In this document: positions 30,508-51,908 of the stretch, piece after piece
Layout of the letters: every line of letters begins with the position of its first letter
Numbering within the stretch: the stretch's first letter is position 1
Source: an uncultured delta proteobacterium
GTDB lineage: Bacteria > Desulfobacterota > Syntrophia > Syntrophales > Smithellaceae
Length of the DNA stretch: 64,000 nt
Assembly (NCBI GenBank): GCA_963811325.1
Contig: CAWEQT010000001.1
Coordinates: forward strand, 1,624,294-1,688,293
Direction of reading: 5' to 3'
Translations under genes and position numbers: made by a program
Notes under the pieces: generated by a model
The model's database searches: none
What the model saw: the letters and a program-made list of their open reading frames with translations, nothing else
Told to the model about the DNA's origin: nothing

Positions 30508-30606
30508 ACCGGTAAGGCAAAAACTTTATTTGCTATGTGCTTCCCTACAGGATTCGCTTCCGGTCTTTGACTAACTTTGCTGGCTGCGTCGTCATCCTTT
30601 GACGAC
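30508..30606 (-). repeat. family 1 intergenic repeat, copy C1 (partial: right arm plus tail, reverse orientation)
   Basis: Its reverse complement aligns with the right arm and tail of the copy at 50049-50283 (GATGACGACGCAGCCAGCAAAGTTAGTC..., ...CCTTACCGGT). Confidence 0.6.
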
Positions 30607-30919
30607 AACTTGATATATATTGTTTAACTGATTTCTCAAAAAAATATTTAAAAATAATTTTTATTTTGCATTTTTCTTTTTTTTATTAGCGGAACTATTT
30701 TTTCAAATAAACAAATTGAAGCTCCATTCATTGACGAGTTTATCATAATTATTTCAAAGTGTTTATTTTTGATTATCTTGAAATGCAGAAAAGACGGGGC
30801 TTACAGCGTTTTATAAATAAGTAAAAATAATCTGACGTTTCGCTTTCTATTATCTGATGAACTTAAAATTCATATGCTGTAAAATATAAATAAAAAAAAT
30901 TATTATTTTGTAGTTTTTG

Positions 30920-30948
30920 TTGACGTGATAATAAAAATAAAGTAAAAT
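30920..30948 (+). promoter_or_regulatory. sigma70-like promoter upstream of the Lys/Ala-rich small ORF
   Basis: TTGACG (30920-30925), 17 nt, TAAAAT (30943-30948), within a very AT-rich ~550-bp spacer. Confidence 0.5.
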
Positions 30949-31012
30949 TAAATTATAAGAAGTTATTGGCAGCATTTTAAACAAACAATTTTGATAAAGG
31001 AGGCTCCACCCA

Positions 31013-31153
31013 ATGGCAACAGCAAAGAAAAAAGTAGTTAAGAAAGCAGCAGCAAAAAAAGTAGTTAAAAAGGCAGCTCCAAAAAAGAAAGTGGAAGCAA
31101 AGAAAGTTGTAAAGAAAGCTGTGGCAAAAAAGAAAGTAGCAAAAAAGAAATAA
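31013..31153 (+). CDS. 46-aa Lys/Ala-rich histone-H1-like basic protein (below the ORF-track length cutoff)
   Basis: Hand translation: MATAKKKVVKKAAAKKVVKKAAPKKKVEAKKVVKKAVAKKKVAKKK. Strong SD AAAGGAGG lies 8 nt upstream. TAA at 31151-31153. Confidence 0.7.
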   Translation: MATAKKKVVKKAAAKKVVKKAAPKKKVEAKKVVKKAVAKKKVAKKK

Positions 31154-31327
31154 GAAAATATTTTTTAGCCGTTTAAATTTTAATCAGTCAATTTGAAGGG
31201 GACGCAGTAGTATCGTTTTCATGGACTTGTTTTTGTATAGAAGGTGGAAAGCTTTCGTTAATCGGATTTTGTATTGCTAATCTCGATACCATAGTTGTTT
31301 TAGTTGCGTTTCAAACATCGACGAACT

Positions 31328-31359
31328 GGCGGTAATTGTTATATATAACGGTTACCGCC
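31328..31359 (+). terminator. candidate intrinsic terminator
   Basis: GGCGGTAATTGTTATA/TATAACGGTTACCGCC forms a 16-bp hairpin (two G-U pairs as RNA), followed by ATTATTTTA. Confidence 0.45.
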
Positions 31360-31465
31360 ATTATTTTATGTATGCCTGTCATATTATGACGCTGTCCTGC
31401 CCTATCTTTCACCGTTGCTTTTTGATTAAATTCATGTATACATATCTCAATATAGTCAGAGGTAA

Positions 31466-31482
31466 ATCAGTTATCAACTGAT
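31466..31482. promoter_or_regulatory. 17-bp palindrome upstream of sufC (candidate operator)
   Basis: ATCAGTT-ATC-AACTGAT, ~40 nt before the sufC ATG. Confidence 0.35.
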
Positions 31483-31521
31483 GATTTTCATACATTTTAA
31501 AGATAGGGGTAAATTAAACTA

Positions 31522-32277
31522 ATGCTGGATTTAAAAAATTTGTTTTTTACCACCCAGGGAAATGGTGACGGAAACGGCGCTCCCCGCAATATCATTGACG
31601 GCATCAATTTCAATTTCGAAAAAGGGAAATTTTACGTCATTACCGGTCCGAACGGCAGCGGGAAAACGACTCTGGCTAAACTTATAATGGGAATCTATCC
31701 GATATCCAGTGGCTCTATATTTTTCGAGGGCAGGGATATATCCGGTCTTTCCATTACCGAACGCGCCAAATTAGGCATCGCCTATAGTTTTCAGCAACCT
31801 GCGCGTTTCAAAGGAATTACTTTTCGGGATTTACTGGCTATGGCCACTGGAGTTGATGATGAGAAAAAGTTTCTGGAAATGCTAGGCCGGGTGGGAATCT
31901 GTCCGCTTTCTTTTCTGGATAAAGAAGTTGATGCCACACTTTCGGGTGGAGAAATTAAAAAAATAGAACTGGCTACGACTATTGCCGCCAATCCGAAACT
32001 GGCCATTTACGATGAGCCGGACACAGGCATTGATTTATGGACAATCGGTCCGATGGTCAGCCTTTTGAAAAATGAACTCAACAAAAAAACAACAACAATT
32101 GTCGTCAGCCATAACAAAGCTTTTTTGGATGTAGCGGATGTAATCATAATTATCGATAAGGGCTATATTGCTTATACCGGAGATTTGAAAAAAGCTTTGC
32201 CGCTGTTAACCGATTTGAGTATTTGCGCTTATCATCACAAATGCGAGGAAGATCAAGATGCTGGATGCCTTAGATAA
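31522..32277 (+). CDS. sufC: Fe-S cluster assembly ATPase SufC-like (ABC ATPase)
   Basis: Walker A GPNGSGKTT, ERAKLGIAYSFQQP, signature LSGGEIKK, Walker B LAIYDEPD. Followed by a SufB/D-family gene. Confidence 0.8.
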   Translation: MLDLKNLFFTTQGNGDGNGAPRNIIDGINFNFEKGKFYVITGPNGSGKTTLAKLIMGIYPISSGSIFFEGRDISGLSITERAKLGIAYSFQQPARFKGITFRDLLAMATGVDDEKKFLEMLGRVGICPLSFLDKEVDATLSGGEIKKIELATTIAANPKLAIYDEPDTGIDLWTIGPMVSLLKNELNKKTTTIVVSHNKAFLDVADVIIIIDKGYIAYTGDLKKALPLLTDLSICAYHHKCEEDQDAGCLR

Positions 32278-33178
32278 AAAATTATTAAAAACAGTAGCCG
32301 ATCTGGAAGGATTGCCCAAAGGTGCCTACAATATCAGGAAAAACGGTAAGCTTCTTCAAAGGCAGGTATCGGCCAATATTAATATTGAAACCAATGCCGA
32401 AGGAACTGGCATTATTGTGACTATAAAACCGGGCACAAAAAACGAATCCGTTCACATTCCCGTTATCTTAAGCCAGGCCGGTCTTTTTGATGTCGTTTAC
32501 AATTCGTTTATTATCGGCGAAGAAGCCGAAGTGACAATAATTGCCGGCTGCGGTATCCATTGCGGATCGTCCGAGTCCGAAGGCCATGCCGGCATCCACG
32601 ATTTTCAAGTGGGTAAAAAGGCAAAGGTGACCTACGTGGAAAAGCATTTCGCCACGGGAGAAGGCAGGGGCCGCCGCACTCTCAATCCGACGACAAAAGT
32701 ATTTCTGGACGAGGGAGCGACGGCGGAAATGGAATTAACCCAAATCAGCGGCGTTGATGAAGCCGACCGTTTAAACGAAGCGACTCTCGGACACGGCAGT
32801 CTTTTATTGATTACGGAAAGAGTTCTGACTGAAGGCGAACAGAAAGCGGTTTCTACTAATAACATCATCCTTCAGGGCTCCGGAAGCAGAGCCAACATGA
32901 TCTCCCGTTCGGTAATGAAAGGCAATTCCAAACAGATCTTTCACGCTTCGATGGAAGCCAGGAACAAGTGCTTCGGGCATATCGAATGCGACGCCATTAT
33001 TATGGATAACGGCACCAATGAAACCATGCCTGCGCTCAAGGCTCTCCATCCCGATGCCGAACTCACCCATGAAGCCTCGATCGGGAAAATCACCAACGAT
33101 CAACTTACCAAACTCATGAGCCTAGGGCTTACTTACGATGAGGCAGTCAACAGGATTATTCAGGGATTCCTTAAATAA
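32258..33178 (+). CDS. SufB/SufD-family Fe-S assembly protein (short form)
   Basis: 306 aa with the beta-helix-type repeat pattern and the C-terminal ...[18 protein letters not shown]....A..... consensus (here [35 protein letters not shown]). Overlaps sufC by 20 nt. Confidence 0.75.
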
Positions 33179-33210
33179 AATTACAAATCCACGAAAACGA
33201 GAAAATAAAA

Positions 33211-34293
33211 ATGAAAACAAAAAACAAAAGCAAGGTTGAATTCAAGAATTTGCTGGTTACAGGCGGTTGCGGATTTATCGGCAGTAATTTTATACGCTAT
33301 TTAATTAACAATAATGATTTCTCCGGCAGAATAATTAATGTAGATAAATTAACTTACGCGGGAAATCCGGAAAATCTCGCAGGCATTGCCTCTGATTTCG
33401 CGTCAAGATATATTTTCCAAAAAGTCGATATTTGCGACGACGCTAAATTGGAAGAGGTATTTTCGCAATATGATGTTGACGCCGTCTGTCACTTTGCCGC
33501 CGAATCACACGTTGACCGCTCCATAAAAACCCCCGGTGATTTTATCCAAACCAACATTATCGGAACCTTTAACCTTCTGGAAACAGCAAAAGCCCGCGGA
33601 GATGAATTCAAGCTGTTTCATCATGTCAGCACCGACGAAGTTTACGGCAGTCTAGGAGCCGAAGGCCTTTTCCGCGAAGATATGCCGTATCGTCCCAACA
33701 GCCCGTATTCCGCATCCAAAGCGGCTTCCGATCATCTGGTACGCGCTTATTACAAAACGTTTGCCCTGCCCTCAACAATTTCCAACTGTTCTAATAACTA
33801 CGGCCCTTATCAGTTTCCGGAAAAACTCATTCCTTTGATTGTTCTCAATGCCCTTGAGGGAAAACCGCTTCCGGTTTACGGTGACGGGAAAAATGTCCGT
33901 GACTGGCTTTATGTCGAAGACCACTGCGAAGCCATCTGGACAATTATGACATCGGGAAAACATGGAGAAACATACAATGTCGGCGGCAAAGCGGAAATGG
34001 AAAACATTTTAATAGTGCAAATGATTTGCAATATTCTCGACGAAATCAAACCAGCGGCAGATGGGAAGCCGAGACACCAGTTGATTACTTTTGTCAAGGA
34101 CCGGCCCGGCCACGACCGCCGTTACGCCATTGATTTTTCCAAAATCAAAAATGAATTGAACTGGTCTCCCAGGGAATCATTTGATTCCGGAATGCGAAAA
34201 ACGGTCAATTGGTACTTGAACCAGAAAAAGTGGGTGGAAAATATCAAAACCGGCGCTTACCAAAAGTGGATTGAAGAGCAATACGGTTCGTAG
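33211..34293 (+). CDS. rfbB: dTDP-glucose 4,6-dehydratase
   Basis: [42 protein letters not shown] (YxxxK), [12 protein letters not shown]. Confidence 0.9.
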
Positions 34294-34622
34294 CATTGTT
34301 CTGGAGATTAAACATTATTTTATTACTTGAAGCGGCATTGTGATATCGATATGTTCAATGGATGCATAGAATATGATCAGATAAATATTTTGCCATGAAT
34401 TTGCTGGCTGGCAATATTTTATTCAGCATTTGCACGTATTATATTTATTAACAGGCAATGGTGCCATAGAACCAGCTCAGTAAATTTCGGGAAAGAGCGT
34501 CTCTATATTTTCCTGTCCTTTCCGCACGATTTTTTGTTCTTGGCGATGGTGTTAATATTTGTTGTTTTTTCAGTTTGGAAGTATAAATTTAAGTCATATT
34601 AATAATCGGGATAAGATGAATT

Positions 34623-35744
34623 ATGATGACACGTTTTGAAAGCATTATCAATACCGCAATCAAAGAATCCATGTCGGATATCCATATCACCGGTGAACAT
34701 CCCGTGGTCTTACGAAAACAAGGCGATATTCAATTTCACACTTCCCTGAGGTGGACTCATCAGGAAATCGATGATTTCACAAGAAAGCTCCTGATCTGGA
34801 TTCTTCCGGGTAGTATACCGACAATCGAAGAACTCAACCTTCATTCCTCTCTCCATGATATTTCCAGGATCGAGTCCGGCCTGGTACTCATCTGCGGCGC
34901 TACAGGGGTAGGCAAGACAACGACAATTGCGGCAATTATTAACGACATCAATAAATCCCGTCAGACACATATTATCACGCTGGAAGATCCCATCGAGTAC
35001 CGCTTTCAATCCAAAAACTCATTCATCGAACAGCGTGAACTCGGTTCCCATATGCCTTCTTTTAAACAGGGTCTCATTGATGTGCTGCGCGAAGATCCGG
35101 ATGTGATTGTTGTTGACGAACTGCGGGAAGGGGAAACTATGCAGCTCGCTCTCAATGCCGCAGAGTCGGGTCACCTAGTTATTGCCATTATGCACGCAGC
35201 CTCTCCCGAAGAGGCCGTCTATCGCATGTGCAATGCTGTGCCAGTAGAGGCCCAAAACGAGGTGCGCAATCAACTGGCGTCCACTCTGGCATGGATTGTT
35301 GTTCTGCAACTGATTCACCTGGAAAAAGCCGGCCAGCGTGTTCCCGTTCTGACAATTGTTCATGGCACCCAACCTATAAAGAACATCATCCGCGACAACA
35401 AACTTCATCAACTCAGTAACACCATAGAAATATCGAAAAATGAGGGTATGTTCCTGGCCGAACGTTATTTTACAGAATATCTGAAGACCCGCTCCGACTT
35501 CACATCCTGTAGGAAAATCTTTCGCCCCTCCACAGAATTGTCGCAGGATAGTTTTTACCAGTCGCCGCTGACAGAAGATCCTCCACAGATTAAGCATGAG
35601 GCAAAACACCAGGCCACAACGGCGTCACAGCCAATCATAGACGTGACTGGATACAGCGACGAAAATATCGACAGTATATTAAATATTAATGACGATATAA
35701 CGTTGAATAATATTGCCGAAAAGTTGAATAAGAATAACGTGTAA
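34623..35744 (+). CDS. divergent PilT-like AAA+ ATPase (type IV pilus retraction family) with N-domain deletion and C-terminal extension
   Basis: SDIHIT, Walker A GATGVGKTTT, HIITLEDPIEY, LREDPDVIVVDELREGET, AESGHLVIAIMHA. ~40 aa of the canonical N-domain (the RFRVN hairpin region) is absent, with ~90 extra C-terminal residues. Confidence 0.7.
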   Translation: MMTRFESIINTAIKESMSDIHITGEHPVVLRKQGDIQFHTSLRWTHQEIDDFTRKLLIWILPGSIPTIEELNLHSSLHDISRIESGLVLICGATGVGKTTTIAAIINDINKSRQTHIITLEDPIEYRFQSKNSFIEQRELGSHMPSFKQGLIDVLREDPDVIVVDELREGETMQLALNAAESGHLVIAIMHAASPEEAVYRMCNAVPVEAQNEVRNQLASTLAWIVVLQLIHLEKAGQRVPVLTIVHGTQPIKNIIRDNKLHQLSNTIEISKNEGMFLAERYFTEYLKTRSDFTSCRKIFRPSTELSQDSFYQSPLTEDPPQIKHEAKHQATTASQPIIDVTGYSDENIDSILNINDDITLNNIAEKLNKNNV

Positions 35745-35839
35745 ATTTTTTAGTCACTTTTTGACATGAATCTATCACACATTTCTGACAGTTTTTTTTA
35801 AATTGTTACTGACGGCAGGATGCTGAACTTGTGCGTATA

Positions 35840-35964
35840 ATACCAATTCTCAATCAAAGATGATATTGAAGCGGCCAGGCGGAGGCAACGATACGTATTA
35901 TTCATACGTTGAGGACGCCGACAACGACGCCAACAAAAATAGCCCTTTGATTTAGAATTGGTAT
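35840..35964 (+). repeat. family 1 intergenic repeat, copy C2 (short form enclosed by a ~20-bp outer stem)
   Basis: Outer stem 35840-35859 / 35945-35964, left arm GATGATATTGAAGCGGCCAGGCGGAGGCAACG, central ATACGTAT-TATTC-ATACGT, right arm TGAGGACGCCGACAACGACGCCAACAAAAATAGCC. Confidence 0.7.
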
Positions 35965-36025
35965 AACCATAAGAGAGGCAGGCAGAACTTATTCTTCTTG
36001 AGGCATCATGAATAATTTGTTAATT

Positions 36026-36046
36026 AACATCAATCAAAGTGATGTT
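36026..36046. promoter_or_regulatory. inverted repeat upstream of rubrerythrin (candidate operator)
   Basis: AACATCA-N7-TGATGTT, ~37 nt before the ATG. Confidence 0.3.
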
Positions 36047-36082
36047 GATTAACTTAATAAAAATAAACAAAGGAGAAGAATC

Positions 36083-36580
36083 ATGTCTAAATCAGAAGAC
36101 GCTTTGAAAGATGCTTTTGCCGGAGAATCACAGGCAAACCGTAAATATCTGGCCTTTGCCGCTAAAGCAGATCAGGAGGGATTTTCGCAGACGGCAAGGT
36201 TGTTTCGGGCGGCTGCGGGAGCCGAAACGGTTCACGCCCACGTCCACTTGCGGGCATTGAAAGGAATCAAATCCACAAAGGAAAACCTGCAAGAAGCGAT
36301 AGCCGGAGAAACTCATGAGTTCAAAAGCATGTATCCGGCAATGATTGAAACGGCTAAAAACGAAGGGAATAAAGAGGCCCAACGATCTTTTACTTTTGCC
36401 AACGAAGTGGAGAAAATTCATGCCGGACTTTATCAGCAGATGCTTGATAATCTGGAAGGCTCGAAAGAATCTTATAGCTATTACGTTTGCCCCGTGTGCG
36501 GCTATACTTCAGAAAAAGAAGCACCGGAAACTTGTCCGATATGCGGCGCTAAGGGGAAGATGTTTAAAAAAGTTGATTGA
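36083..36580 (+). CDS. rubrerythrin
   Basis: Ferritin-like diiron domain (ESQANRKY, ETVHA, ETHE, EKIH) plus a C-terminal rubredoxin-like CPVCG...CPICG. Confidence 0.9.
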   Translation: MSKSEDALKDAFAGESQANRKYLAFAAKADQEGFSQTARLFRAAAGAETVHAHVHLRALKGIKSTKENLQEAIAGETHEFKSMYPAMIETAKNEGNKEAQRSFTFANEVEKIHAGLYQQMLDNLEGSKESYSYYVCPVCGYTSEKEAPETCPICGAKGKMFKKVD

Positions 36581-36598
36581 TATCAAGCAGCATTCAAT

Positions 36599-36765
36599 GG
36601 CTAACTTTGTTGGCTGCATCGTCGACGTCCTCAGCGTATTAGAATACGAGAGTGTATCCCCAAAGGGGGACACACTATAAATAGATCATTTCCATACCGG
36701 TGAGCTACGCCATAATGGCGCGGCTCACATACGTCTGCGGAGCTTCCTCTTTGCCGCCTCGTTAT
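36599..36765 (-). repeat. family 1 intergenic repeat, copy C3 (long form; arms in reverse orientation, internal two-hairpin module in + orientation)
   Basis: The + strand reads rc(right arm) GGCTAACTTTGTTGGCTGCATCGTCGACGTCCTCAGCGT, the internal module (GTGTATCCCC-AAA-GGGGGACAC; GTGAGCTACGCC-ATAA-TGGCGCGGCTCAC), then rc(left arm) CGTCTGCGGAGCTTCCTCTTTGCCGCCTCGTTAT. Confidence 0.7.
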
Positions 36766-36901
36766 TCATTAAATGCTTCTCGATATATAAATATATCAAC
36801 ACAGTCATATCGGCTCGGCAAACTCCGGCCGGTGCAGTACGGGTCTTCTGACCCTTTAAACCGGCGAACCTAAAGGTTCGTACTACAATTAAGGCTTAAT
36901 A

Positions 36902-38518: not shown

Positions 38519-38644
38519 GTGACGCTGCATATGCAAAATCAGCATTATTTTGTTCGTGTTACTTAGAAATACGTGTTGAACTAATCAAAAATATCCACTA
38601 TAATCAATATTAGATTAATTTTATTTATTTATATCGAGTTGTAC

Positions 38645-38736
38645 TCAAAGGATAACGAGGCGGCGAGGAAGAGGCGACGCAGTCGTATACCATTTTATAC
38701 GTCGAGGAGCCGATGACGATGCCAACAAAGTTAGCC
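38645..38736 (+). repeat. family 1 intergenic repeat, copy C4 (short form)
   Basis: TCAAAGGATAACGAGGCGGCGAGGAAGAGGCGACGCAGTCGTATACC-ATTTT-ATACGTCGAGGAGCCGATGACGATGCCAACAAAGTTAGCC. Ends ~50 nt before the ATG at 38788. Confidence 0.7.
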
Positions 38737-38787
38737 AGAGAGGACAACTTGGTATTACTTGAACATCCGAGTAAGGGAGGGATCAAG

Positions 38788-39306
38788 ATGAATAAAAGAT
38801 TGAACGCCTTGAAATTTGCTTTAGAAAACGAACAGAAAGAAAGAGATTTCTATCTGGCTAATGCGCGTAGAACAAAGAATTTAGCCGGTAAAAACATGTT
38901 CAAACAAATTGCCGAAGAAGAAAAAGAACATTATGAAGTTTTAAAAAAATTGTATGACCAATGGGAAATGAAAAGAAAGTGGCCGGCGACAGTTCCGTTG
39001 AAAGTAAGAAAATCTTTGGCTGGCAGCATTTTAAAATCTATGCCGAATAAAAAATCTGCCCGTTTCAAAGGCAATGAAGACGATTTGAAAGCGATTCGCA
39101 CGGCGATTGATTTCGAAGCAAGGGGCATGGCGCTTTATACTAAGCTGGAAAAGGAAAGTACCGATCCTAAAGAAGAAAAATTTTTTAATTTAATTGCCAG
39201 TATTGAACGGGAACATTTTCTTTCCCTGCGTGAAACAGAATTATTCCTGACCGATCCGGCCACCTGGTACCAGAATATGGAAAAGCCAATGCTGGATGGG
39301 GCTTGA
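38788..39306 (+). CDS. ferritin-like / rubrerythrin-family protein (no rubredoxin domain)
   Basis: ALENEQKERDFY...EEEKEHY and AIDFEARGMALY...IEREH paired E/ExxH motifs. Start at MNKRL after AAGGGAGGG; the longer ORF start at 38713 lies inside repeat C4. Confidence 0.8.
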   Translation: MNKRLNALKFALENEQKERDFYLANARRTKNLAGKNMFKQIAEEEKEHYEVLKKLYDQWEMKRKWPATVPLKVRKSLAGSILKSMPNKKSARFKGNEDDLKAIRTAIDFEARGMALYTKLEKESTDPKEEKFFNLIASIEREHFLSLRETELFLTDPATWYQNMEKPMLDGA

Positions 39307-39355
39307 TATAGAGCATCCTACCAATTCGTTTTTAAGCGAATTGGTATCCGTGCTG

Positions 39356-41559: not shown

Positions 41560-43140
41560 ACTACACCTACCTAGCTTCAGTATCGGGCAGTCGTCCGAGT
41601 TGAGTCAACTATCATGAATTTACCTCTGGGCAAAAAGTAGTTCGATGTGTCAGCATAGCATAGATGACACGAATTAACTTATGAGCCGTAGCAAGCACAG
41701 CCTTCTTATGGGGCAATCCCTCCTTTCTTCGCTTTTGATAATAGGTTTTAAAAATATCGGTGTATTGGATTACGCGGGTTGTCATCGTCCAGATGATCTT
41801 TCGTAAATGACGATTCCCGCGTTTTGTTATTCTGCCCCTGCCTTCATGTTTGCCGGATTGGTAAACAGCCGGATCCAATCCGGCCAGGGCAATGATTTTA
41901 CCGGAACGTTCAAACTGATGGAGGTCACCACCCATCTCCATGAGAAAATTCACGGCCGTCGTGTCTCCAATCCCTTTTATAGAGGTCATGATATTGATGT
42001 CATCTTCCATCAGTTTACGGCTTATCTCTATCAGCATGCCCGTTATCTCCTGAAGGGAATCCTCCATATGGAGAAGCAAATCTGCCTTCTGCTTTAGAAT
42101 CATTTCCTTGACAGAACTGCTTGTGCCGATGGATTTCTGTGCTGCCTTGACTAACCCCGCAGCAAAGGCTTCCCCTTTATGTCCATAGGAATCGGAAATC
42201 AACATCTCAGATATCCGGCCAATGTCCGCATCTCTGAGTGCGGCAGCTGAAGGATATTGACGTATTAACTTCAACATGGACTTCGCAAATACCGGCGTCA
42301 TATGTTCCAGTTCCGGAAAAATGATATTCAGGAGCCTTTTGATGTTTATCTTCAATGCCGTCATCTCGGCAATCAGACTCTCCCGCTGACGGGAAAGATC
42401 GCAAAGATCGGCAAGGGAAGATGAACTTATCCGTTGCATCAGTGAATGCCCATTAGCAAGCAAAAATAGGGCAATTAAGGCAGCATCCTTCTTGTCTGTT
42501 TTGGTCTTCCTCAACGGCATCTTTACATAATTGGATATCAGCAATGGATTGATGAGAATAACATCAAAACCTTCAGAAACCAGATAAGAAAAAAGATTAA
42601 CATGATAAGTCGCCGTCGATTCCATCCCGATTAAAATAGATGAATTCAAACCGACAAGATGCTTCTTCAGTTTCTCAAAACCTTTGCGGTCCATCGCCAT
42701 GGAAATCTGAAAATGCCTGGTCTCATCTTTCCTTGTCCCACAGGCATCAAATTTATCTTTAGAAATATCTATACCAACAAAATAATCAAAATCACCTCTT
42801 GTTTCCAACATAACTTAACCTCCTGACTCATGTGGGAAAAAACAGGTATTATTGCCTCCTGACCAATCCTCCATCGTGACAAGGATTCTATGATCCAACC
42901 AACCTATTATGGCTCAAAGAGGCTTGGGACAAACTCAATTAAGGGCTCTATCGCCCAGGATTACCGAAGTCCTCCTGCCTTTCCATGTTTTATTACTATA
43001 TTAACGTTAGCTACAACTCTAATACTTATTATACATTATTTTACGCTAATTCATGGTAGGAGGATTACGGATGGAAAGGTGCACCATAAAAAACTACTCT
43101 CTTACAGCCGTTCTGATAAGGGAGTAGTTGCAATGACCTG
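41560..43140 (-). mobile_element. IS110-family insertion sequence (ends not resolved)
   Basis: A complete transposase gene is flanked by 267 bp (3' side) and 372 bp (5' side) of non-coding DNA between two unrelated genes. No terminal inverted repeats were seen, as is usual for IS110. The boundaries given are placeholders. Confidence 0.4.
41612..42811 (-). CDS. IS110-family transposase (DEDD recombinase), intact
   Basis: N-terminal FVGIDISKDKFDAC...GMESTATYH and C-terminal IKGIGDTTAVNFLMEMG....F.....IIALAGLDPAVYQSGK......ITKRGNRHLRK. SD GGAGGT. Confidence 0.9.
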   Translation of the reverse strand: MLETRGDFDYFVGIDISKDKFDACGTRKDETRHFQISMAMDRKGFEKLKKHLVGLNSSILIGMESTATYHVNLFSYLVSEGFDVILINPLLISNYVKMPLRKTKTDKKDAALIALFLLANGHSLMQRISSSSLADLCDLSRQRESLIAEMTALKINIKRLLNIIFPELEHMTPVFAKSMLKLIRQYPSAAALRDADIGRISEMLISDSYGHKGEAFAAGLVKAAQKSIGTSSSVKEMILKQKADLLLHMEDSLQEITGMLIEISRKLMEDDINIMTSIKGIGDTTAVNFLMEMGGDLHQFERSGKIIALAGLDPAVYQSGKHEGRGRITKRGNRHLRKIIWTMTTRVIQYTDIFKTYYQKRRKEGLPHKKAVLATAHKLIRVIYAMLTHRTTFCPEVNS

Positions 43141-43183
43141 ACTAAACAGATTAAATTTTGATGCCCTTAATAAAATCTATATA

Positions 43184-44247: not shown

Positions 44248-44888
44248 GGATTGATGATTTGAGGAGGAAGCAAGAAATAAAAATTTGATAACCGGACCGT
44301 CAGAATTATTTCTTACACCTCCTAAGAAACAAGAATACGAAGTTATGCAATTTCAGGAAGTTAGATTGCTACTGCTTCTGAACGTCTCCTCGCAATTACA
44401 CTATGTGTTTCTTTCATCAATAACCCGTTTGATGAACTGGTTAAAATGCTACAAACAAATGGTTTTATAAAAAAAGAAATTTGAGGATTACGATTAGAAA
44501 TGGCCAATAAAAATTGATTAGATTACTTTATTATTCTTAAAATCATTCATTGCTTTGTCCACAACACGGTGGACATCATCAATACATCATGTCCCTTTAG
44601 GATTCTTTACAGCGCACTGGCAAGTTCCTTGTTTTCTTGCCAAGGTAATCCTGTCTAACAATGGAGACTGACCATTGTTTTGAAATATTTCATTTCTTAT
44701 ATCCATTTCAGTGTATTGAAAACAGTAACAGATCATAACGCACCCAATTTCTTTTATTGCCCTGGCACTAAGCTGCAAGTAACAAAACACTCGTCAGCTT
44801 AAATGGCTTTTTATGCGGCAGGATCTTTACGCTCACCTTTGAGGCGCTTCACGCTATGTTCCACCCTATCCAAGGGTGTCCAGATCGG

Positions 44889-45167
44889 TCATATGCAATG
44901 AACCTGCTTTTTTTTGGAGAGAAACAGGTTGGGAATCGCTGTGATTTCGCATCCAGGATTCCGCACGATTGCCCCAATAATAAGGGAAGCACCCAAGATC
45001 ACCAAGACAGCTACGCCTATCAGTGTCAACGTGTCCACGCCGATGCCCCAAATCAAAATGAAGCAACCGATACCACAAAGTATCCGCATGACTCGTCCAA
45101 CAAACAACGGCTCAAGCGTTGCCAAAAATCGTTTCTCTGGTCTTGTCATTTGTATATTCCTGTCCAT
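44889..45167 (-). CDS. hypothetical small membrane protein (two TM helices)
   Basis: ILCGIGCFILIWGIGV and LIGVAVLVILGASLIIGAIV. Preferred over two overlapping plus-strand ORFs with no protein-like features. Confidence 0.4.
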   Translation of the reverse strand: MDRNIQMTRPEKRFLATLEPLFVGRVMRILCGIGCFILIWGIGVDTLTLIGVAVLVILGASLIIGAIVRNPGCEITAIPNLFLSKKKQVHCI

Positions 45168-45380
45168 TTGATTTTTTTATAAGAACTTCCTTTTTGTAGG
45201 GGAAGAATAATAAATCCGGTCTTGTATGTCAAGACAATTTTGTGGCGTAAACGCTGTTTATTACGGATTGAAATCTAGCATTTTAGTCACGATTAACGAT
45301 TTGTTGACTTCAGGAAGTTATCGATTGTCTTGACACTCATTGCAAGATCAGGTTTTGTTCATGGCAATTTAAGGTTATGA

Positions 45381-46280
45381 TTAACCTTTGTAAACATGAC
45401 TTCTGATGAAAGCCGCAAGTTCTTCTTGCGCTTTCCGTGCCTCGGGCAGGCTTACCACGGTGTGGAAAACGTGAAACAGGTCTTCCCATTCTTTGAGTAC
45501 GCAATCAACGCCGGCACGCTTGAGGGCTTTGGCCATTCGTTTTGAGTCATCAAGCAGCATTTCGCTTGTTCCTACGTGAATCAGCACCGGAGGCAGACCG
45601 CTTAAATCCGCGTACAAAGGAGAAATAAACGGCGAGCGCAAGTCCGCATCCTGCACGTATAGAGAAGCCATATAATTCAACCCCGATTTGGTTATAATGG
45701 GATCAACTTCATCTTTTGTCACAACTGTATCGCCGGTATTGGCGAGATCAACCCATGGAGATAGGGCAAAGGCTGCCGCGGGGAGAGGATCGCCCTTCCC
45801 TTTGAGTTCCAGCATCGTCGCAAATGTAAGACCCCCTCCGGCTGAATCTCCGCCGATAACAATGGACTTCGAGGGCACGCCCTGTTTCAATAACCAGCGA
45901 TATGCGTCGGCAGCGTCCTCAACAGCGGCGGGATGCGGGTCTTCCGGAGCAAGACGGTAGTCCACCGATAAAACTCTGATTTGGGATGAATCGCTCAACG
46001 CGCCGGCAAACGCCGCGTGCGTCTGAGCAGAACCCATTGTGTAACCTCCGCCATGAAGATACAAAATGGTTGTTTTGTTTTTATTTTTAGAAGCATCCAC
46101 CCACAACGCCTTCGGGCCTCCGGCATTGACTTTTTCGATTTTGCATCCCGCGGGCGGCCTGGAAAAAGACATCATATCTGCCAGCCCCCGGCGGCAAATC
46201 TCGATAGGAAGTTCTTGGATATTCGGCACTTTCATTTTGGCCATAAAGGCCATGACATTTTTCACATCCTGACTTATCAT
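45381..46280 (-). CDS. alpha/beta hydrolase, hormone-sensitive-lipase-type esterase
   Basis: Oxyanion LHGGGY, nucleophile GDSAGG, and later D and H (DLFHVF) positions. Start at MISQDV; the ORF opens at 46355. Confidence 0.85.
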   Translation of the reverse strand: MISQDVKNVMAFMAKMKVPNIQELPIEICRRGLADMMSFSRPPAGCKIEKVNAGGPKALWVDASKNKNKTTILYLHGGGYTMGSAQTHAAFAGALSDSSQIRVLSVDYRLAPEDPHPAAVEDAADAYRWLLKQGVPSKSIVIGGDSAGGGLTFATMLELKGKGDPLPAAAFALSPWVDLANTGDTVVTKDEVDPIITKSGLNYMASLYVQDADLRSPFISPLYADLSGLPPVLIHVGTSEMLLDDSKRMAKALKRAGVDCVLKEWEDLFHVFHTVVSLPEARKAQEELAAFIRSHVYKG

Positions 46281-46410
46281 TATTGTACCTCTTTTTTCGG
46301 TATAAGATGAAGATTTCAACGAAAGGGAACTATAACATGAAGGGTTGCATGTCAATTAAATATTGACATGCAACATATGATGCGTGGTGATGATAGCGAT
46401 GGCAACAAAA

Positions 46411-46776
46411 TTATTCTTCTAAAGATTTAATAATTAAATATGCAGTAGCTGTATTTGTCGCCAACGGAACATTATGCACATCACATATACGCATCAGCAT
46501 AAAAATATCAGGATCATGCGGATGGTTTCCTAATGGGTCGCGTAAGAATATAACCGCCTGAATTTTTCCATCAACTACATCAGCGGCAATCTGAGCATCG
46601 CCGCCAAGAGGGCCTGATTGTTTTTTCTCAACTTTCAACCCTGCCTTTTCAATATGACTGCCGGTAGAACCTGTGGCAATTAAGTTATATCTTTTTAGTA
46701 TATCAAAATTGTCTTTGACGAAGGCAACCATTTCCGCTTTTTTTCCATCATGCGCTATTATAGCTATAGTTTTCAT
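46411..46776 (-). CDS. mgsA: methylglyoxal synthase
   Basis: IAIIAHDGKK, LIATGSTG, GPLGGDAQIAA, FLRDPL..HPHDPD..ML.R.CDVHNVPLATN. Confidence 0.9.
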   Translation of the reverse strand: MKTIAIIAHDGKKAEMVAFVKDNFDILKRYNLIATGSTGSHIEKAGLKVEKKQSGPLGGDAQIAADVVDGKIQAVIFLRDPLGNHPHDPDIFMLMRICDVHNVPLATNTATAYLIIKSLEE

Positions 46777-46839
46777 TGCAACTATTTTAACCTCTATAAT
46801 TACAGAATAATCTTAACCAAACGACCTCAAATATATAGA

Positions 46840-47214
46840 TCATCCTAAATATTTATCTATTTTTTCCAATAATTCCTCTATTTTATACGGTTTAGATAAA
46901 AAATAATGCCCGCCGATAATATTTTTACGCTTTGTCTCTTCATCTTTAGATAATAATGCCGTAACAAAGATTATAGGAATACCCTGTGTCTGGAGGTTCT
47001 CCTGCAACATCTCCACCACTTCTCCTCCTTCAATATTTGGCATATGAATATCAAGCAATATTAAATCAGGATTTTCCGTTTTTGCCAATAAGATACCCTC
47101 TTCTCCGCTTTGAGCTGTCATAACGGAAAACCCGTTTTTTGTTAAATCATGATCTACTATTCTGAGAAAAATTCTGTCGTCATCTACTACCAGAATTCTT
47201 TTTGCTTCAGCCAC
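46840..47214 (-). CDS. single-domain response regulator (CheY-like receiver)
   Basis: ILVVDDD, DLILLDIHMP, PIIFVTA, LSKPY. The likely GTG start at 47214 follows GGAGG, 2 nt after the Hpt stop. Confidence 0.85.
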   Translation of the reverse strand: MAEAKRILVVDDDRIFLRIVDHDLTKNGFSVMTAQSGEEGILLAKTENPDLILLDIHMPNIEGGEVVEMLQENLQTQGIPIIFVTALLSKDEETKRKNIIGGHYFLSKPYKIEELLEKIDKYLG

Positions 47215-47536
47215 CGAAAACCTCCTTTTTAACTTCCTCAAAAGCAGCTCTTAGTTTTCCTATATTGCTTTTTATAATATTAATGTCTTGTTTTTCCGTT
47301 GATCCTATTTCTATCTCTTTTGCTATTGACTGAATTCCTACTATGCGCAGATTTCCGGCCGAGCCATGAATCAGATGCGCACTTTTCCGGATTTCTTCAT
47401 AATTTTTATTATCTACGATTTCTTCCAATGTTTTCAAGACCGGTTCTGTTTGTTCGATAAACATGTCCAACAATTCATTGAACAGATCTTCCGGCATATC
47501 CAGCTCCCGAAAAGCTTTTTCTCTGTCTATCAGCAT
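47207..47536 (-). CDS. Hpt (histidine phosphotransfer) domain protein
   Basis: SAHLIHGSAGNLR in a four-helix-bundle-sized 109-aa protein. Confidence 0.8.
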   Translation of the reverse strand: MLIDREKAFRELDMPEDLFNELLDMFIEQTEPVLKTLEEIVDNKNYEEIRKSAHLIHGSAGNLRIVGIQSIAKEIEIGSTEKQDINIIKSNIGKLRAAFEEVKKEVFGG

Positions 47537-47712
47537 TATAAGCCTCCCTTCTATCCATAAGGATTTGCCATCAACCTTCAGAATAGTTTTGGCCGCTTAT
47601 ATATAAATGATGGCTGACAGCATACAAATCTTTTTTAATCATACGCTAAGCTGGACCAATAGTATATTCTTTCTTTTGGCTTCGAATTGCCTCTTATAAA
47701 GTATTTTCGTCT

Positions 47713-48906
47713 CTACTTCGCAGACGCTAAGTGCTGTACGGCTTTTTCCAAACCATCGAGAGTAAGCTCGAACATGGGAAAAACCTGCCGGATTATCTCC
47801 GTCGTCCTGCTGTAAGACCATTCCTGAAGCGACATAGGATTTAACCAGACGCTATGATGGAAAGTTCTGGACAGAGATTTCAGACGTTCCAGACTCACGC
47901 CTGTTTGTTTCGCGTCTATGTAAATAGATCCGTTGGGATGAATCAATTCATAAGGAGCCATGTTGGCGTCTCCCACAATTATCAAACGGGTTTCCGGATC
48001 CAAGCGAACAAAATCGTCAACTTCCTGCGGTTTGTAGTATCTCTGCGGATCTGCCCAAACGCGGTTATAAATTGTGTTGTGGAAAAAATAAATTTTTAAA
48101 TCCTTGAACTGAGAGCTGGCGTAATGAAAAAGAGTCTGAACAACATCAATGTATGGATCCATAGACCAGCCGCCGTTATCAATCAACAGTATAACCTTCA
48201 GGCGATCAGCCAGACGACGGTCGAAGATAATCTCGATTTCCCCTGCATTGCGCATGGTTTCATAGACGGTGCTGTCAACGTTCACGATATCTTTTGGCCC
48301 CGTAGGCGCCATGCGGCGCAGTCTTTTCAGCGCCTCTCCCATTTGAGACTGAGTCAGGGGGCCGTCCTGGGAATAATCCCGGTAGCGCCGCTCCAGGGCC
48401 ACTTTGATGGCCGAATGGTTTCTCGATTCTCCGCCAACACGCATCCCGCCCGGATGTGTTCCGGAGTGTCCCGTGGGTGAAGTTCCTTTCGTTCCAATCC
48501 ATTTATTGCCACCGTGATGCGCTTCAGTCTGCTCCTTCAGGCGGTCAAGAAAATATTGAATCAGCTCTTCCGGCGTCATCTTTTTCAGTTTCTCTTGATC
48601 AATTCCCAGAGCGTCAGCCATTCCTTCAGGATTTTGCAGCCATTCCTCAAGCATGGCGCGGGCGATTGCCGTCAATTCCACGGCAGTGGGATCTTCCAGG
48701 AAAGCGTTTTCGAAATGGTGAGCAAATATCTGATCGTAAGTATCGAAATAACGTTCGCTCTTCACAAGAATGGTTCTGGCGACGGTGTAAAAATCATCGA
48801 GAGAATGAACAAGTCCTGCATTCATCGCTTTCTGCAGACGCAGAAAAGACGTTGGCGTGACAGGAATTCCACGGTCTCTCAAAGTATAGAAGAAATTGAC
48901 AAACAC
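47713..48906 (-). CDS. VWA domain protein, CoxE-like
   Basis: N-terminal FFY.LR..G.PV....FL.L..A pattern and a C-terminal VWA-like region (VILLIDNGGWSM, RLIIVGDANM). Lies 10 nt downstream of a MoxR-type ATPase. Confidence 0.75.
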   Translation of the reverse strand: MFVNFFYTLRDRGIPVTPTSFLRLQKAMNAGLVHSLDDFYTVARTILVKSERYFDTYDQIFAHHFENAFLEDPTAVELTAIARAMLEEWLQNPEGMADALGIDQEKLKKMTPEELIQYFLDRLKEQTEAHHGGNKWIGTKGTSPTGHSGTHPGGMRVGGESRNHSAIKVALERRYRDYSQDGPLTQSQMGEALKRLRRMAPTGPKDIVNVDSTVYETMRNAGEIEIIFDRRLADRLKVILLIDNGGWSMDPYIDVVQTLFHYASSQFKDLKIYFFHNTIYNRVWADPQRYYKPQEVDDFVRLDPETRLIIVGDANMAPYELIHPNGSIYIDAKQTGVSLERLKSLSRTFHHSVWLNPMSLQEWSYSRTTEIIRQVFPMFELTLDGLEKAVQHLASAK

Positions 48907-48916
48907 AAATCAAACC

Positions 48917-49768
48917 TCAACCACGTGATTTAACAACCTGCTGGATTGCCTGTTGAAGGTCAGCGCTTTTCTTGAACAGAACTCCCAGGAAAGGCACCCT
49001 TCCTTGAAGAAGTGTTTTGGGTCTAAAGTCCGGATCGCTTTTCAGAGCTCGAATCCAGTTGATCAATTCCCGCGTGGCCGGTTTTTTCTCGATTCCCCGC
49101 AGCTCCCGCAAACGGTAAAACGTACTGATGCAGATGCTCATCAATTCTTCATCCAGTTTGGGAAAATGCACTTCCACTATCAGGCGCATCATATCGGGAT
49201 CGGGAAAAGCTATATGATGAAAATTGCAGCGTCCGAGAAATGGATCGGAGAGATCCTTCTTGGCATTGGAAGTTATGACAATCACAGGACGGTGTTTGGC
49301 CTTGATGGTTTTGTCTATTTCTATAATATCAAACTGCATCTGGTCGAGCACGTCGAGCATATCGTCCTGAAAATCGGTGTCGGCCTTGTCAATCTCATCA
49401 ATAAGTAGAATGGTTTTTTTATCTGCCGTAAAAGCCTGACCAACCTTGCCCATTTTAATATATGATTCGATATTGCTCACATCACGCTTGGAATCGCCGA
49501 AACGGCTGTCGTTGAGGCGTGTGAGTGTGTCGTACTGATAAAGCGCCTCAATAAGCTTCATGCTTGACTTGACGTTCAAAACAATCAGAGGCATTTGCAG
49601 ACTTTCCGCAATGGCATGAGCCAGCATGGTCTTTCCAGTGCCGGGTTCGCCCTTGAGTAAAAGAGGCATTTCCAAAGTCATGGAAACATTTACGATTTTC
49701 GCCAGTTCATTATCTAAAACATATTTAGATGCGCCACTGAACCTGGTATTATTTTTTTCTGAAGACAT
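48917..49768 (-). CDS. MoxR/CoxD-like AAA+ ATPase
   Basis: Walker A GEPGTGKT, Walker B LLIDEIDK, ITSN sensor region. Confidence 0.85.
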   Translation of the reverse strand: MSSEKNNTRFSGASKYVLDNELAKIVNVSMTLEMPLLLKGEPGTGKTMLAHAIAESLQMPLIVLNVKSSMKLIEALYQYDTLTRLNDSRFGDSKRDVSNIESYIKMGKVGQAFTADKKTILLIDEIDKADTDFQDDMLDVLDQMQFDIIEIDKTIKAKHRPVIVITSNAKKDLSDPFLGRCNFHHIAFPDPDMMRLIVEVHFPKLDEELMSICISTFYRLRELRGIEKKPATRELINWIRALKSDPDFRPKTLLQGRVPFLGVLFKKSADLQQAIQQVVKSRG

Positions 49769-49793
49769 GATAAACTCCTGTTACCCTTGTTTT

Positions 49794-49917
49794 ATAACAT
49801 TTTAATCAAAGCGCTATTTTTGTTGGCTTCGTTGTCGGCTTCCTCAACGTATCAGCATATACGCCTCGTCGCCTTAAGCCTAGACGCCTCAATATCATCT
49901 TTGATTAAAAATGTTAT
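49794..49917 (-). repeat. family 1 intergenic repeat, copy C5 (short form with outer stem, reverse orientation; in the moxR leader)
   Basis: Outer stem 49794-49811 / 49899-49917. Its reverse complement aligns base-for-base in architecture with copy C2. Confidence 0.7.
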
Positions 49918-50048
49918 TGAAACTCAATGCTTCCGCAAAGGGTCAATTTGTAATTTTACAACTTTTTTTCATTATCCGATTCTGCTGAAAAATACCAGCC
50001 GTTTTTGATTGGGTTTTGACAACGAATTCCCCTAATACCCTTTTGCTG

Positions 50049-50283
50049 TCAAAGGATAACGAGGCGGCAAGGCGGAGGCTCCGCAGACGAATATGTTCCC
50101 GTAGTGCGACCCAAAGGGAGCACAATAAAAAACAAACCTTTTCCTTACCGGTCAGCTACGCCGCAATGGCGTAGCTGACACATACGTTGAGGAAGCCGAC
50201 GACGAAGCTAACAAAGTTAGCCACTGACCGGGAACGCATCTCGCAGAGAAGCTCATAATAAATAAGCAATCTTACCTTACCGG
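50049..50283 (+). repeat. family 1 intergenic repeat, copy C6 (long form with internal two-hairpin module and tail)
   Basis: Left arm 50049-50089, internal hairpins GTGCGACCC-AAA-GGGAGCAC and GTCAGCTACGCC-GCAA-TGGCGTAGCTGAC, right arm 50184-50222 ending in GCTAAC-AAA-GTTAGC, and a tail to ~50283. Confidence 0.7.
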
Positions 50284-50293
50284 CGAAAGTGTA

Positions 50294-51790
50294 TCAGACT
50301 ATCAGTGACGGGCGTTTATCAAACCACGGCTTTGCTTTTTCCAACTGAAACGCAAGCCTAAACAGAGTGGATTCATTGCCGAAAGGCGCGATAAACTGGA
50401 CGCCGCAGGGCATGCCGTTTTTATCCCAGTGCAACGGCATATTCATCGCGGGCTGGCCGGTAAAATTGCCTATCTGGGTGAACGGTGTTTTGGCAAGAGT
50501 TTGTATGGCTATTTGATTTATCATTCCGGTTGCTTTAGCTAGAGAGCCAAGTTTCAGGAAACTTAATATTTCCATAGCGGTCTTTTCGTATGATTTCGGC
50601 TGAAGCTCTCCTATTTTTGCCGCAGGGAAAGCTACCGTCGGAGTGAGATATAAATCGTACTTCAAATGAAATTGTCCCATCACTCTTGCGGCGGTATCCC
50701 ATTCACGCATGGCACTCACGAAATCTGACGCGCTGTAACAATGGCCAAGTTCACCGAAAAACCATGTCGTTATTTCAAAATCTTCCCGTCCGACCTTTTT
50801 CTTTAGCACAGATTCCGCCAATTCTATATCAGCCGCAGTTTCTCCAAAATAAAGAGTGAAATAAGAGTTAGCCAGTTTTACGCCGTCAAGTTCCGGTTTG
50901 GCCTCTTCCACTTTGTGCCCTAATTCTTCCAGCAGTCTGACGGTTTCATAAACGGCCTGTTTACAATACTCATGCGTTCCCGTGCCCAGCGGAGATTCTG
51001 TGTTAAAGGCGATTTTCAACGAACCGAGTTCCTGGTTTATTTCTTCGCTGTAACGTATTTCCGGAGGTTTGAGAATATAAGGCGCACCCGGATCGGCTCC
51101 CTGAGTCGCATCGAGCATCGCGGCGCTATCCCGCACCGACCGTGTCAGCACATGCTCCGCCGTCGCACCCTGCCATAGCTTGCCATATTTCGGCCCTGTC
51201 GGAGTGCGTCCCCGTGACGGTTTCAGGCCGAACAGACCGCAATAACACGAAGGAATGCGAATAGAACCGCCTCCATCGCCGCCTGATGCCAGAGGCACCA
51301 TGCCGGAAGCCACTGCCGCGGCGGAGCCTCCGCTTGATCCGCCGGGAGTATGCTCTATATTCCAGGGATTGCGCGTCGGGCCGAACAACTCCGGTTCAGT
51401 TATGCCCATCAAACCGAATTCGGGAGTGTTTGTTTTTCCCAACGCGATCAGACCCGCTCTTTTGAAGCGTATTACAAGCTCGCTATCATAATCGGGAACA
51501 TAATCTTTGTATGCGCGGCAGCCCCATGTTAATTTGACTCCGGCGTAAGAACTGATTAAATCTTTCAAAAGAAAAGGAACGCCGCTAAACGGCCCGTCAG
51601 GCAGAGGGTTTTTGGCTGTATCGCGTCCGATATCGAACATCGGAGTTACCACCGCGTTGATAATAGGGTTGATTTTTTCCACGCGGCTTATTGCTTCTTC
51701 GCAAAGTTCGGCAGGAGAAATTTTTTTCTCCCGTACAAGTTTCGCCAATCCTAGTCCGTCATATTTATCGTACTCAACAAAACCAGCCAT
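50294..51790 (-). CDS. amidase (amidase-signature family)
   Basis: [14 protein letters not shown]...[12 protein letters not shown] signature. 498 aa. Confidence 0.85.
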
Positions 51791-51873
51791 GATCTAAGCC
51801 TCCCTTTCCGATAAAAAATAATTACAAAGAATATATTAGGCCAAAATCGTTTTAAAATCCAATAGAATTTTCA

Positions 51874-51908
51874 GGATAATAAATGACGACAAAGCCAACA
51901 AAGTTAGC
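51874..51908 (+). repeat. family 1 intergenic repeat, copy C7 (minimal derivative)
   Basis: GGATAATAAATGACGACAAAGCCAACAAAGTTAGC: the left-arm start joined to the right-arm end. Confidence 0.5.

Follow-up and report, generated by a model that had tools for sequence, protein, structure and literature searches.

The closest described counterparts of the repeat family analysed here are the ERIC, Correia, REPIN and bcr1 elements of other bacteria, together with elements that duplicate a 3-bp target on insertion. The family lies in a 64,000-nt stretch of an uncultured delta proteobacterium of the Smithellaceae (GenBank GCA_963811325.1, contig CAWEQT010000001.1, positions 1,624,294 to 1,688,293; hereafter the window), where it is represented by five full copies (A–E), two degraded short forms (F and G) and one terminal-repeat stub, all between 30.5 and 52 kb. 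We conclude that these repeats very probably constitute a transposable element of the miniature inverted-repeat kind (MITE), about 123 bp long, which duplicates a 3-bp TNA target and is ordinary selfish DNA.

The ERIC (or IRU) elements of enterobacteria, imperfect palindromes of about 127 bp, resemble the Smithella family in their size, long imperfect hairpin, intergenic position, co-transcription and frequent location at gene 3' ends; their terminal inverted repeats are likewise short, as is their target duplication, which contains T/A, and their effects on mRNA depend on orientation (PMC3184786). They differ in being flanked by TA instead of the 3-bp TNA, in showing no sequence similarity to the present family and in residing in another phylum; furthermore, the internal core of the Smithella family, which is known here from sequence alone, is purine-rich with a 3-nt periodicity. 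The Correia elements (NEMIS) occur as full-length and internally deleted forms. As small MITEs of about 104-157 bp with terminal inverted repeats, lying beside genes in many copies in Neisseria, they are also similar (PMC3184786). However, their 26-bp terminal repeats are well conserved, and they have a TA duplication as well as an IHF site and functional promoters, whereas the terminal repeats are the least conserved part of the Smithella family, in which no promoter was detected beyond chance. The target duplication consensus of the IS1031 group and of the PIF/Harbinger superfamily is TNA or TWA. The IS1031 group of the IS5 family and the eukaryotic Tourist MITEs (PIF/Harbinger) thus share the 3-bp duplication with our repeats, the feature on which a tentative assignment is based.

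The REPINs, mobilised in the RAYT system, are non-autonomous hairpins of about 100 bp, in which conserved blocks alternate with parts that keep only their pairing, and in which compensatory changes and mutual or adjacent insertion are common (PMC3116915). They consist, in contrast, of two inverted repetitive extragenic palindromic (REP) units and have a linked single-copy RAYT gene; no target duplication has been reported for them, whereas the Smithella family duplicates TNA and ends in AT-rich TACCATTTC repeats, not in GC-rich REP palindromes. Finally, bcr1 of the Bacillus cereus group is a transcribed mobile repeat of about 155 bp, with flanking direct repeats and compensatory changes that keep its structure (PMC3184786), but its direct repeats measure 5 bp, its sequence is unrelated and its host is a different one. 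A full-text literature search for Smithella together with "miniature inverted-repeat" returned no paper; the family is a previously undescribed member of a conventional class, a lineage-specific MITE.

Copies in the window and in other genomes

Profiles of the two arms of the repeat detected five left arms (E 1e-12 to 2e-9) and seven right arms (E 4e-14 to 5e-6) in the window, with no further match below E 0.1. An unfiltered covariance model (CM) scored copies A, D and C at 137, 116 and 112 bits, the cores of E and B at 44 and 40 bits, and G at 21 bits, and gave no convincing copy in the window beyond 30.5-52 kb. The seven copies that an earlier note had recognised from the letters of the sequence are thus real, far above chance and at or near the places given there; their positions were nearly correct, while the true boundaries are wider (corrected for A–G in Table 1) and an eighth relic at 39319-39346 had gone unlisted. 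A repeat finder also returned the common left arm, central hairpin and right arm (direct families D6, D10, D12, D13 and D15; inverted pairs I1-I7, I9 and I19), and Rfam, at gathering as well as permissive thresholds, gave nothing matching at the copies. All copies are indeed intergenic, and B and E end exactly at the stop codons of rubrerythrin and amidase, respectively. In what follows, every copy is set like 38645-38736(+), an orientation termed forward.

The canonical unit of 122-123 bp reads TACC...GGTA and is bounded by imperfect terminal inverted repeats, whose consensus arms (TACCATTTC.../...GAAATGGTA) reach 15-20 bp. Its interior comprises a small central hairpin and a conserved purine-rich core, to which the conserved internal loops GAGGCGGCAAGGAGGAGGC and GAGGAAGCCGACGAC belong. 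Two types can be distinguished, namely type 1 (TACCATTTCTAAATCAAAGATGATATCGAGG...GATAGCGCTTTGATTTAGAAATGGTA; copies A and D) and type 2 (TACCATTTCGCTTTCAAAGGATAACGAGG...GTTAGCCAAAGAAAGCGAAATGGTA; copies B, C and E). The outer stem, attributed at first to the two short copies A and D, is present there and equally in B, C and E, and hence in all full copies. Similarly, the palindromic ACGTAT/ATACGT centre is a genuine hairpin, but in B and E it holds a nested foreign module, since their long centres represent one two-hairpin module of about 81-87 nt, inserted in opposite orientations within the palindrome. An additional 57-nt module lies within the 3' stem of E and F. As for the proposed GCTAAC-AAA-GTTAGC hairpin, it is perfect only in E, whereas family-wide GTTAGC pairs with GATAAC of the left arm. 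The short forms F and G are devoid of the centre, and like forms are present in other genomes. The sequence TATATATCGAG upstream of B, C and F was considered as a common promoter and rejected, because it is the 5' terminal repeat, that is, the 5' strand of the outer stem.

Table 1. Copies of the repeat family in the window, with their scores, flanking triplets and neighbouring genes.
Copy	Position	Strand	Form	Scores	Flanks and neighbouring gene
A	35841..35963	+	Canonical short type 1, TACCAATTC...GAATTGGTA	CM 136.9 bits; RNA fold -37 kcal/mol, z -5.2	Direct TAA duplication (35838-35840 and 35964-35966); 116 nt upstream of the rubrerythrin ATG
B	36581..36785	-	Type 2 with an 81-nt foreign two-hairpin module in the central hairpin (36648-36728)	Arms E 2.6e-11 and 2.3e-13	3' duplication TCA (element strand) is the rubrerythrin stop TGA (36578-36580); 5' duplication degenerated to ATA
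C	38632..38754	+	Canonical short type 2	CM 112.4 bits	TTA duplication (38629-38631 and 38755-38757); in the 5' untranslated region of the gene for a ferritin-like protein, following the promoter TTGAAC-17-TATAAT (38576-38604) and preceding the true ATG (38788)
Minimal relic (eighth)	39319..39346		Terminal repeats alone as a hairpin, TACCAATTCG-TTTTTAA-GCGAATTGGTA	Weak, CM 11.8 bits	Between the convergent ferritin-like and ABC-F genes
D	49795..49916	-	Canonical short type 1 with the rare TAAC terminus	CM 115.5 bits	Duplication TAA (49792-49794) and degenerate CAA (49917-49919); 23 nt from the duplication to the moxR-like ATG
E	50036..50293	+	Type 2 with two nested foreign modules, in the centre (50095-50181) and the 3' stem (50226-50283)	Arms E 1.1e-12 and 3.9e-14	3' duplication TCA (50294-50296) is the amidase stop TGA (minus strand)
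F	30485..30615	-	Short form with the central hairpin and most of the left arm missing (TCAAAGGAT / GACGACGCAGCC...); tail module of E also present (30509-30565); terminal repeats degraded	Right arm E 8e-7; CM 10.6 bits	33 nt past the stop codon of its neighbour gene
G	~51858..51926	+	Degenerate short form	Right arm E 5e-6; CM 20.6 bits, E 0.019	1 nt past the FGGY kinase stop

When GTDB species genomes were scanned for the right-arm pattern, at least 118 stretches were obtained, and the family-wide counts given here cover the matches listed. The element is present in at least 114 loci among the 118 matches listed, nearly all of them in metagenome-assembled genomes (MAGs) named Smithella, Smithellaceae, Syntrophaceae or "delta proteobacterium". 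The outlier in Udaeobacter is a weak right-arm match without a left arm and not a real copy, and that in Prevotella, absent from the arm matches inspected, was not counted as one. On the listed loci, the arm profiles recovered at least 126 right arms, at least 105 left arms and at least 101 full elements, with an inter-arm distance of 6 nt in 60 copies, 7 nt in 17 and 8-10 nt in eight; longer distances reflect nested inserts. A scan of viral contigs yielded only five pattern-level matches, none with a left arm and none a real copy, and carriage by phages was rejected on this ground.

Target duplications and empty sites

The triplets flanking the element are identical in 27 of the 50 scorable copies, as compared with 10.6±2.6 after permutation, and none of 10000 permutations reached 27, which argues against the TNA identity being a mere effect of base composition. 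The identical pairs are TTA/TTA, TAA/TAA and TCA/TCA. Since no inverted TTA/TAA pair occurs among the scorable copies, the triplets do not extend the inverted repeats but are a direct duplication.

We obtained the orthologous regions of relatives via protein searches (81-93% protein identity) and contig look-ups; these loci are cited by their L numbers. As a result, empty orthologous sites were found for A, C, D and E. At site A, the window reads ..GTGCGTA-TAA-[A]-TAA-CCATAAGAG.., while L124 is empty and has a single TAA (..TATA-TAA-AACCATAAGAG..). At site C (..TTATT-TTA-[C]-TTA-CTTGAACATCC.. in the window), L125 and L127 are empty with a single TTA before CTTGAACATCC, L126 is also empty and shows TAT at the corresponding position, and L124 is filled; in addition, L027 carries an independent type-1 insertion a few nucleotides from this site. 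Site D is empty in L133 (..GCGTTT-TAA-ATCAAGGGCAATAGGAG..; ..GCGTTT TAA ATCAAGGG..) and filled in the orthologue L136. Site E is empty in L133 too, the amidase TGA being followed by unrelated DNA, whereas at the same stop a canonical short copy is found in L134 and a truncated copy in L136. The remaining sites document progressive decay across sister genomes: after the stop that B abuts, L124 and L126 keep only terminal-repeat stubs; half of the minimal relic is kept in L124 and none of it in L125 and L127; and L133 holds a fuller short-form copy at site G, abutting the stop of the same gene. Decay proceeds by internal deletion, which gives rise to short forms and to terminal-repeat stubs.

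The criteria applied to MITEs in the literature (Delihas 2011, PMC3184786) are terminal and direct repeats, folding as a hairpin, the occurrence of both filled and empty sites and the lack of a transposase. The Smithella family indeed consists of units shorter than about 400 bp with terminal repeats and a direct duplication, dispersed in many copies among orthologous sites that are either filled or empty. Of the explanations offered in the earlier note, that of a REP/MITE-type element with maintained pairing was therefore essentially right, as the target duplications and empty orthologous sites proposed there as checks were both found. The insertion into pre-existing palindromes does not hold for the element itself, because the empty sites have no stems and the duplication lies outside the stems; smaller unrelated modules, on the other hand, do insert into the hairpins of this family.

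Transposition of the MITE would depend on a transposase supplied in trans. A 3-bp TNA duplication is the hallmark of the IS1031 group of the IS5 family, and it would point to an enzyme of that group or to a PIF/Harbinger-like DDE enzyme; no gene for such an enzyme turned up in the material analysed. The sole transposase gene near the copies belongs to the IS110 family (41612-42811, minus strand; DEDD_Tnp_IS110 and Transposase_20); no ends matching the repeat family occur in its flanks, and it is present in the same-strain contig L119 and absent from the orthologous L124, L125 and L127. Any effects on host genes, exerted as a hairpin in the 5' or 3' untranslated region (UTR), would be by-products.

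Two other identities were considered for the repeat. The GNN periodicity of the arms and a 32-codon ATG-TAG open reading frame (ORF) in copy A had raised the suspicion of a small protein or a transposase remnant, which was rejected: the frame is not maintained from A to D, the arm spacing is 6, 7 or 8 nt, and the third positions are equally conserved. No conserved ORF was found in the family, since the indels are not multiples of three, codon third positions are not more variable and a 1-nt indel separates the left-arm variants. An integron attC site, which would have R''/R' core sites (RYYYAAC / GTTRRRY), stand in a cassette array beside an integrase gene and show no target duplication, was likewise rejected, as the GATAAC/GTTAGC pair is limited to type 2, type 1 having GATATC/GATAGC, and a target duplication is present; no integrase gene is found among the annotated genes of the window, the neighbours being housekeeping genes.

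Structure and placement of the copies

Covariation was analysed in an alignment of 78 short copies, in which we tested our own structure. All nine terminal pairs of helix 1 (9/9) have changes on both sides, and 89.5% of its cells are paired, so that the compensatory change noticed earlier in the outer stems extends to the whole set. The inner helix GATA(A/T)C / G(T/A)TAGC, which contains an invariant A·G mismatch, also covaries (GATAAC/GTTAGC versus GATATC/GATAGC), pair 30:109 being UA in 40 copies and AU in 38, and pair 31:108 being CG in 66 and UA in 10. The central hairpin is invariant and lengthened by two G:U pairs. The covariation score of the whole structure was 0.216, as against 0.107 for shuffled alignments (0 of 500 reached 0.216) and at most 0.058 for slid partners. 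Helices between the purine-rich arms were rejected, because 33-44 of the 78 copies leave them unpaired and they show essentially no compensated changes (one copy, one pair per helix); the arm "pairs" at every third base predicted by RNAfold are an artefact of the GNN periodicity in both arms. The two covarying helices would also be expected of a DNA palindrome or a pair of transposon ends.

The two strands are not equivalent in their folding. In 75 of the 78 copies, the RNA fold of the forward, purine-rich strand is better by about 10 kcal/mol, and this applies also to all 17 of the 17 stop-abutting copies whose host mRNA carries the reverse strand. Since the asymmetry is independent of the direction of transcription, it is intrinsic to the element and not evidence of structural selection on host transcripts; selection at the RNA level that tracks the direction of host transcription was looked for and not seen.

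We also examined how the copies lie relative to genes. In a simple ORF-based map, the flanking-gene arrangements among the matches listed numbered 34, 23, 18 and 14, and tandem intergenic regions held 23 co-oriented and 34 anti-oriented copies; there is no leader-like placement rule in the family. Three copies in the window (A, C and D) do lie upstream of, and co-oriented with, the genes for rubrerythrin, a ferritin-like protein and MoxR, as had been reported, and such positions, together with the two covarying helices and the strong folds of the copies (z-scores of -3.8 to -5.2), would fit structured cis-regulatory leaders or small RNAs of oxidative-stress genes. This explanation, also raised in the earlier note, nevertheless seems most improbable. 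Copies B, E, F and G are anti-oriented at gene 3' ends, orientation is mixed throughout the family and the neighbour genes seen are diverse, close relatives hold the same genes and promoters without the element, the target duplications mark the copies as insertions, and Rfam contains no matching family. According to Pfam, the neighbour genes in the window are functionally unrelated, and the association with the rubrerythrin, ferritin-like and moxR genes is incidental.

The promoter TTGAAC-17-TATAAT before copy C is conserved in all orthologues, and the same gene and promoter occur without the element in three relatives. Because C lies between this conserved promoter and the start codon, it would certainly be transcribed as a hairpin of the 5' UTR. 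In public gene calls, the ferritin-like gene begins at the equivalent of 38719 (195 aa), within the right arm of C, whereas the orthologues without the element encode 172 aa and start at the equivalent of the ATG at 38788, behind a GGGAGGG ribosome-binding site. The insertion has thus created a false N-terminal extension of 23 codons. Inside the copies themselves, consensus scans for promoters gave nothing beyond chance, nor was there a terminator-like T-run beyond chance.

The 3' duplication, reading TCA or TTA on the element strand, coincides in 30 of the 106 copies with the stop codon (TGA or TAA) of a converging ORF at least 90 codons long. The stop is abutted by the 3' end of the element in these 30 cases and by its 5' end in four (binomial p = 6e-6), and only one obviously orthologous pair is found among the 30. 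That TAA and TGA fit the TNA target and that an insertion at the stop spares the gene would explain why about 30% of the copies abut a stop codon; insertions exactly at stop codons would survive because the gene stays intact.

Several observations weigh against a simple MITE. No autonomous partner was found, in that no matching termini enclose a gene in about 1.05 Mb from 133 loci. Within subtypes, the terminal repeats are only 81-83% identical to the consensus as compared with 91-96% for the internal arms, a difference that holds even in columns not forced by the search pattern, and the better conservation of the core than of the ends inverts the pattern that is typical for MITEs. Furthermore, orthologous copies differ in a paired manner: between copy D of the window and of L136, CTAAAT corresponds to TTAAT in both arms (a substitution and a 1-nt deletion on each side), and between copy E of the window and of L134 there are two compensated pairs (T:A to C:G; G:C to T:A) besides two uncompensated changes, so that the arms co-evolve in place. 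The stem pairs of the forward strand include 45 G:U but only 13 A:C, and this excess and the joint change of the arms suggest a constraint on one folded strand, beyond plain cut-and-paste by a DDE enzyme. Finally, the 30:4 orientation bias is not predicted by symmetric insertion; it may reflect selection against a very stable, Shine-Dalgarno-like purine strand immediately after the stop, a benefit of the pyrimidine strand at 3' ends or asymmetric target capture.

Some of these features could be accommodated by supposing, in addition to the MITE origin, that hosts have partly co-opted the element. It might then act as a 3'-end stabiliser, processing site or terminator when the pyrimidine strand is transcribed, and in 5' UTRs as a structure bearing the strong Shine-Dalgarno-like loop AAGGAGGAGG, with selection keeping the core and the pairing. 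The 30:4 bias, the conservation of the core across many species and the position of C within a conserved 5' UTR would agree with this proposal, as would the old orthologous copies (C/L124, D/L136, E/L134), which keep the invariant positions and have compensated arm differences; there is a precedent in the ERIC elements, which change mRNA stability according to their orientation (PMC3184786). However, orthologous copies differ by about 20%, about as much as unrelated ones, and sister genomes readily lose or truncate them. The better-folding strand is moreover the purine-rich one even where the other is transcribed, and the copies show neither promoters nor terminator-like T-runs beyond chance. 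We therefore regard partial co-option as doubtful.

A different view of the variable yet paired ends is that the hairpin moves as single-stranded DNA, recognised by its structure through an HUH/Y1 enzyme like those of the RAYT-REPIN and TnpA-IS200/IS605 systems, for which the fold of the strand would outweigh the sequence of the ends. The core is more conserved than the ends, the G:T excess over A:C (45 versus 13) is confined to one strand whatever the direction of host transcription, REPINs likewise show frequent compensatory changes in their long hairpin (PMC3116915), and the central palindrome receives small nested modules in both orientations. Nevertheless, the direct 3-bp duplication and the empty sites with a single copy of the target speak against this route, and neither GTAG-type REP units nor, among the annotated genes of the window, a RAYT or TnpA gene was found. 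Target duplication is not known for elements of the IS200/IS605 and RAYT types. Such a mode of transposition is thus very unlikely.

Somewhat less remote, though still improbable, is a strand-specific folded module, in which the purine-rich loops GAGGCGGCAAGGAGGAGGC and GAGGAAGCCGACGAC would be functional, either for a structure-dependent mobilising enzyme that tolerates any paired ends or for host use at mRNA ends. This would jointly explain the conserved core, the coordinated arm changes, the G:U excess and the 30:4 bias. 

For the MITE itself, the complementarity of the stems might be kept by the need for a hairpin, in mobility or in a transcript, or by template switching, through which one arm becomes a copy of the other; that templates are switched at quasi-palindromes in replicating DNA is a known mutational route. 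Folded-strand selection, quasi-palindrome template switching and conversion from other copies are the candidate causes of the stem pairing.

Nested modules, other features and significance

The MITE family is a frequent landing site for other tiny hairpin modules. In a second, unrelated family of small repeats, a GC hairpin (GACCGGGAGCGCATCC..GGGAGCGC) is linked through an A-rich spacer to CCTTACCGG, after which another hairpin often comes. This second family occurs in the window at 50226-50283, 30509-30565, 50095-50181 and 36648-36728, and also in L022 (~3513) and L047 (~5045), nesting in the 3' stem or the central hairpin in either orientation; it is found free-standing in other genomes too. 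Further tiny inserts comprise a 20-nt ACGTGTGACCTTCAGGTTAT unit in either orientation, CCCGGC...GGG hairpins and a module of about 70 nt, AGTGAAACTCGAATT...CCGCTTCAGCGGGGC. They reside in the central loop (L064, L110, L089, L075, L087 and L018), the right arm (L043, L074 and L028) or the left arm (L015, L036, L051, L042, L029 and L096). In the host genomes, several families of miniature elements seem to coexist and to use one another's hairpins as targets.

Some features of the window are distinct from the repeat. The palindrome TTAACATCAATCAAAGTGATGTTGATTAA lies outside the repeat, at about 36017-36055 upstream of rubrerythrin, in a region that orthologues retain in varied form whether they have copy A or not; it resembles a repressor operator, for which the PerR/Fur type would fit the gene. 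A conserved block, CAAAAACGGCTGG(T/C)A..TTC...AATCGG...GCCCTTTGCGGA, precedes the gene for the moxR-like AAA ATPase (49950-50035, and also in L133, L134 and L136); present in all orthologues and independent of D and E, it is possibly the promoter or operator of that gene. A tandem AAGAAAGCAGCAGCAAAAAAAGTAGTT-type coding repeat (31013-31144, family D3) lies at the start of a small Lys/Ala-rich ORF, possibly for a histone-like or nucleoid protein. A 297-nt direct repeat of 72% identity (8045-8341 and 13695-13991, 5.65 kb apart; family D1) probably marks paralogous genes, and three tRNA genes are clustered at 16601-16854.

Smithella-like syntrophs, uncultured organisms that are key degraders of propionate and alkanes and known mostly from MAGs, have the family in abundance. 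In these genomes it misleads gene annotation, as in the ferritin-like ORF that runs into copy C, it will give rise to false predictions of structured RNAs with genuine covariation, and it probably breaks assemblies, while the presence or absence of copies at individual sites provides ready strain markers. An RNA gene and a mobile DNA palindrome cannot be told apart by covariation alone. What interest remains attaches to the biased orientation at stop codons and to a conserved core flanked by variable but paired ends, and the family constitutes a natural data set on the orientation-dependent survival of hairpin insertions exactly at stop codons.

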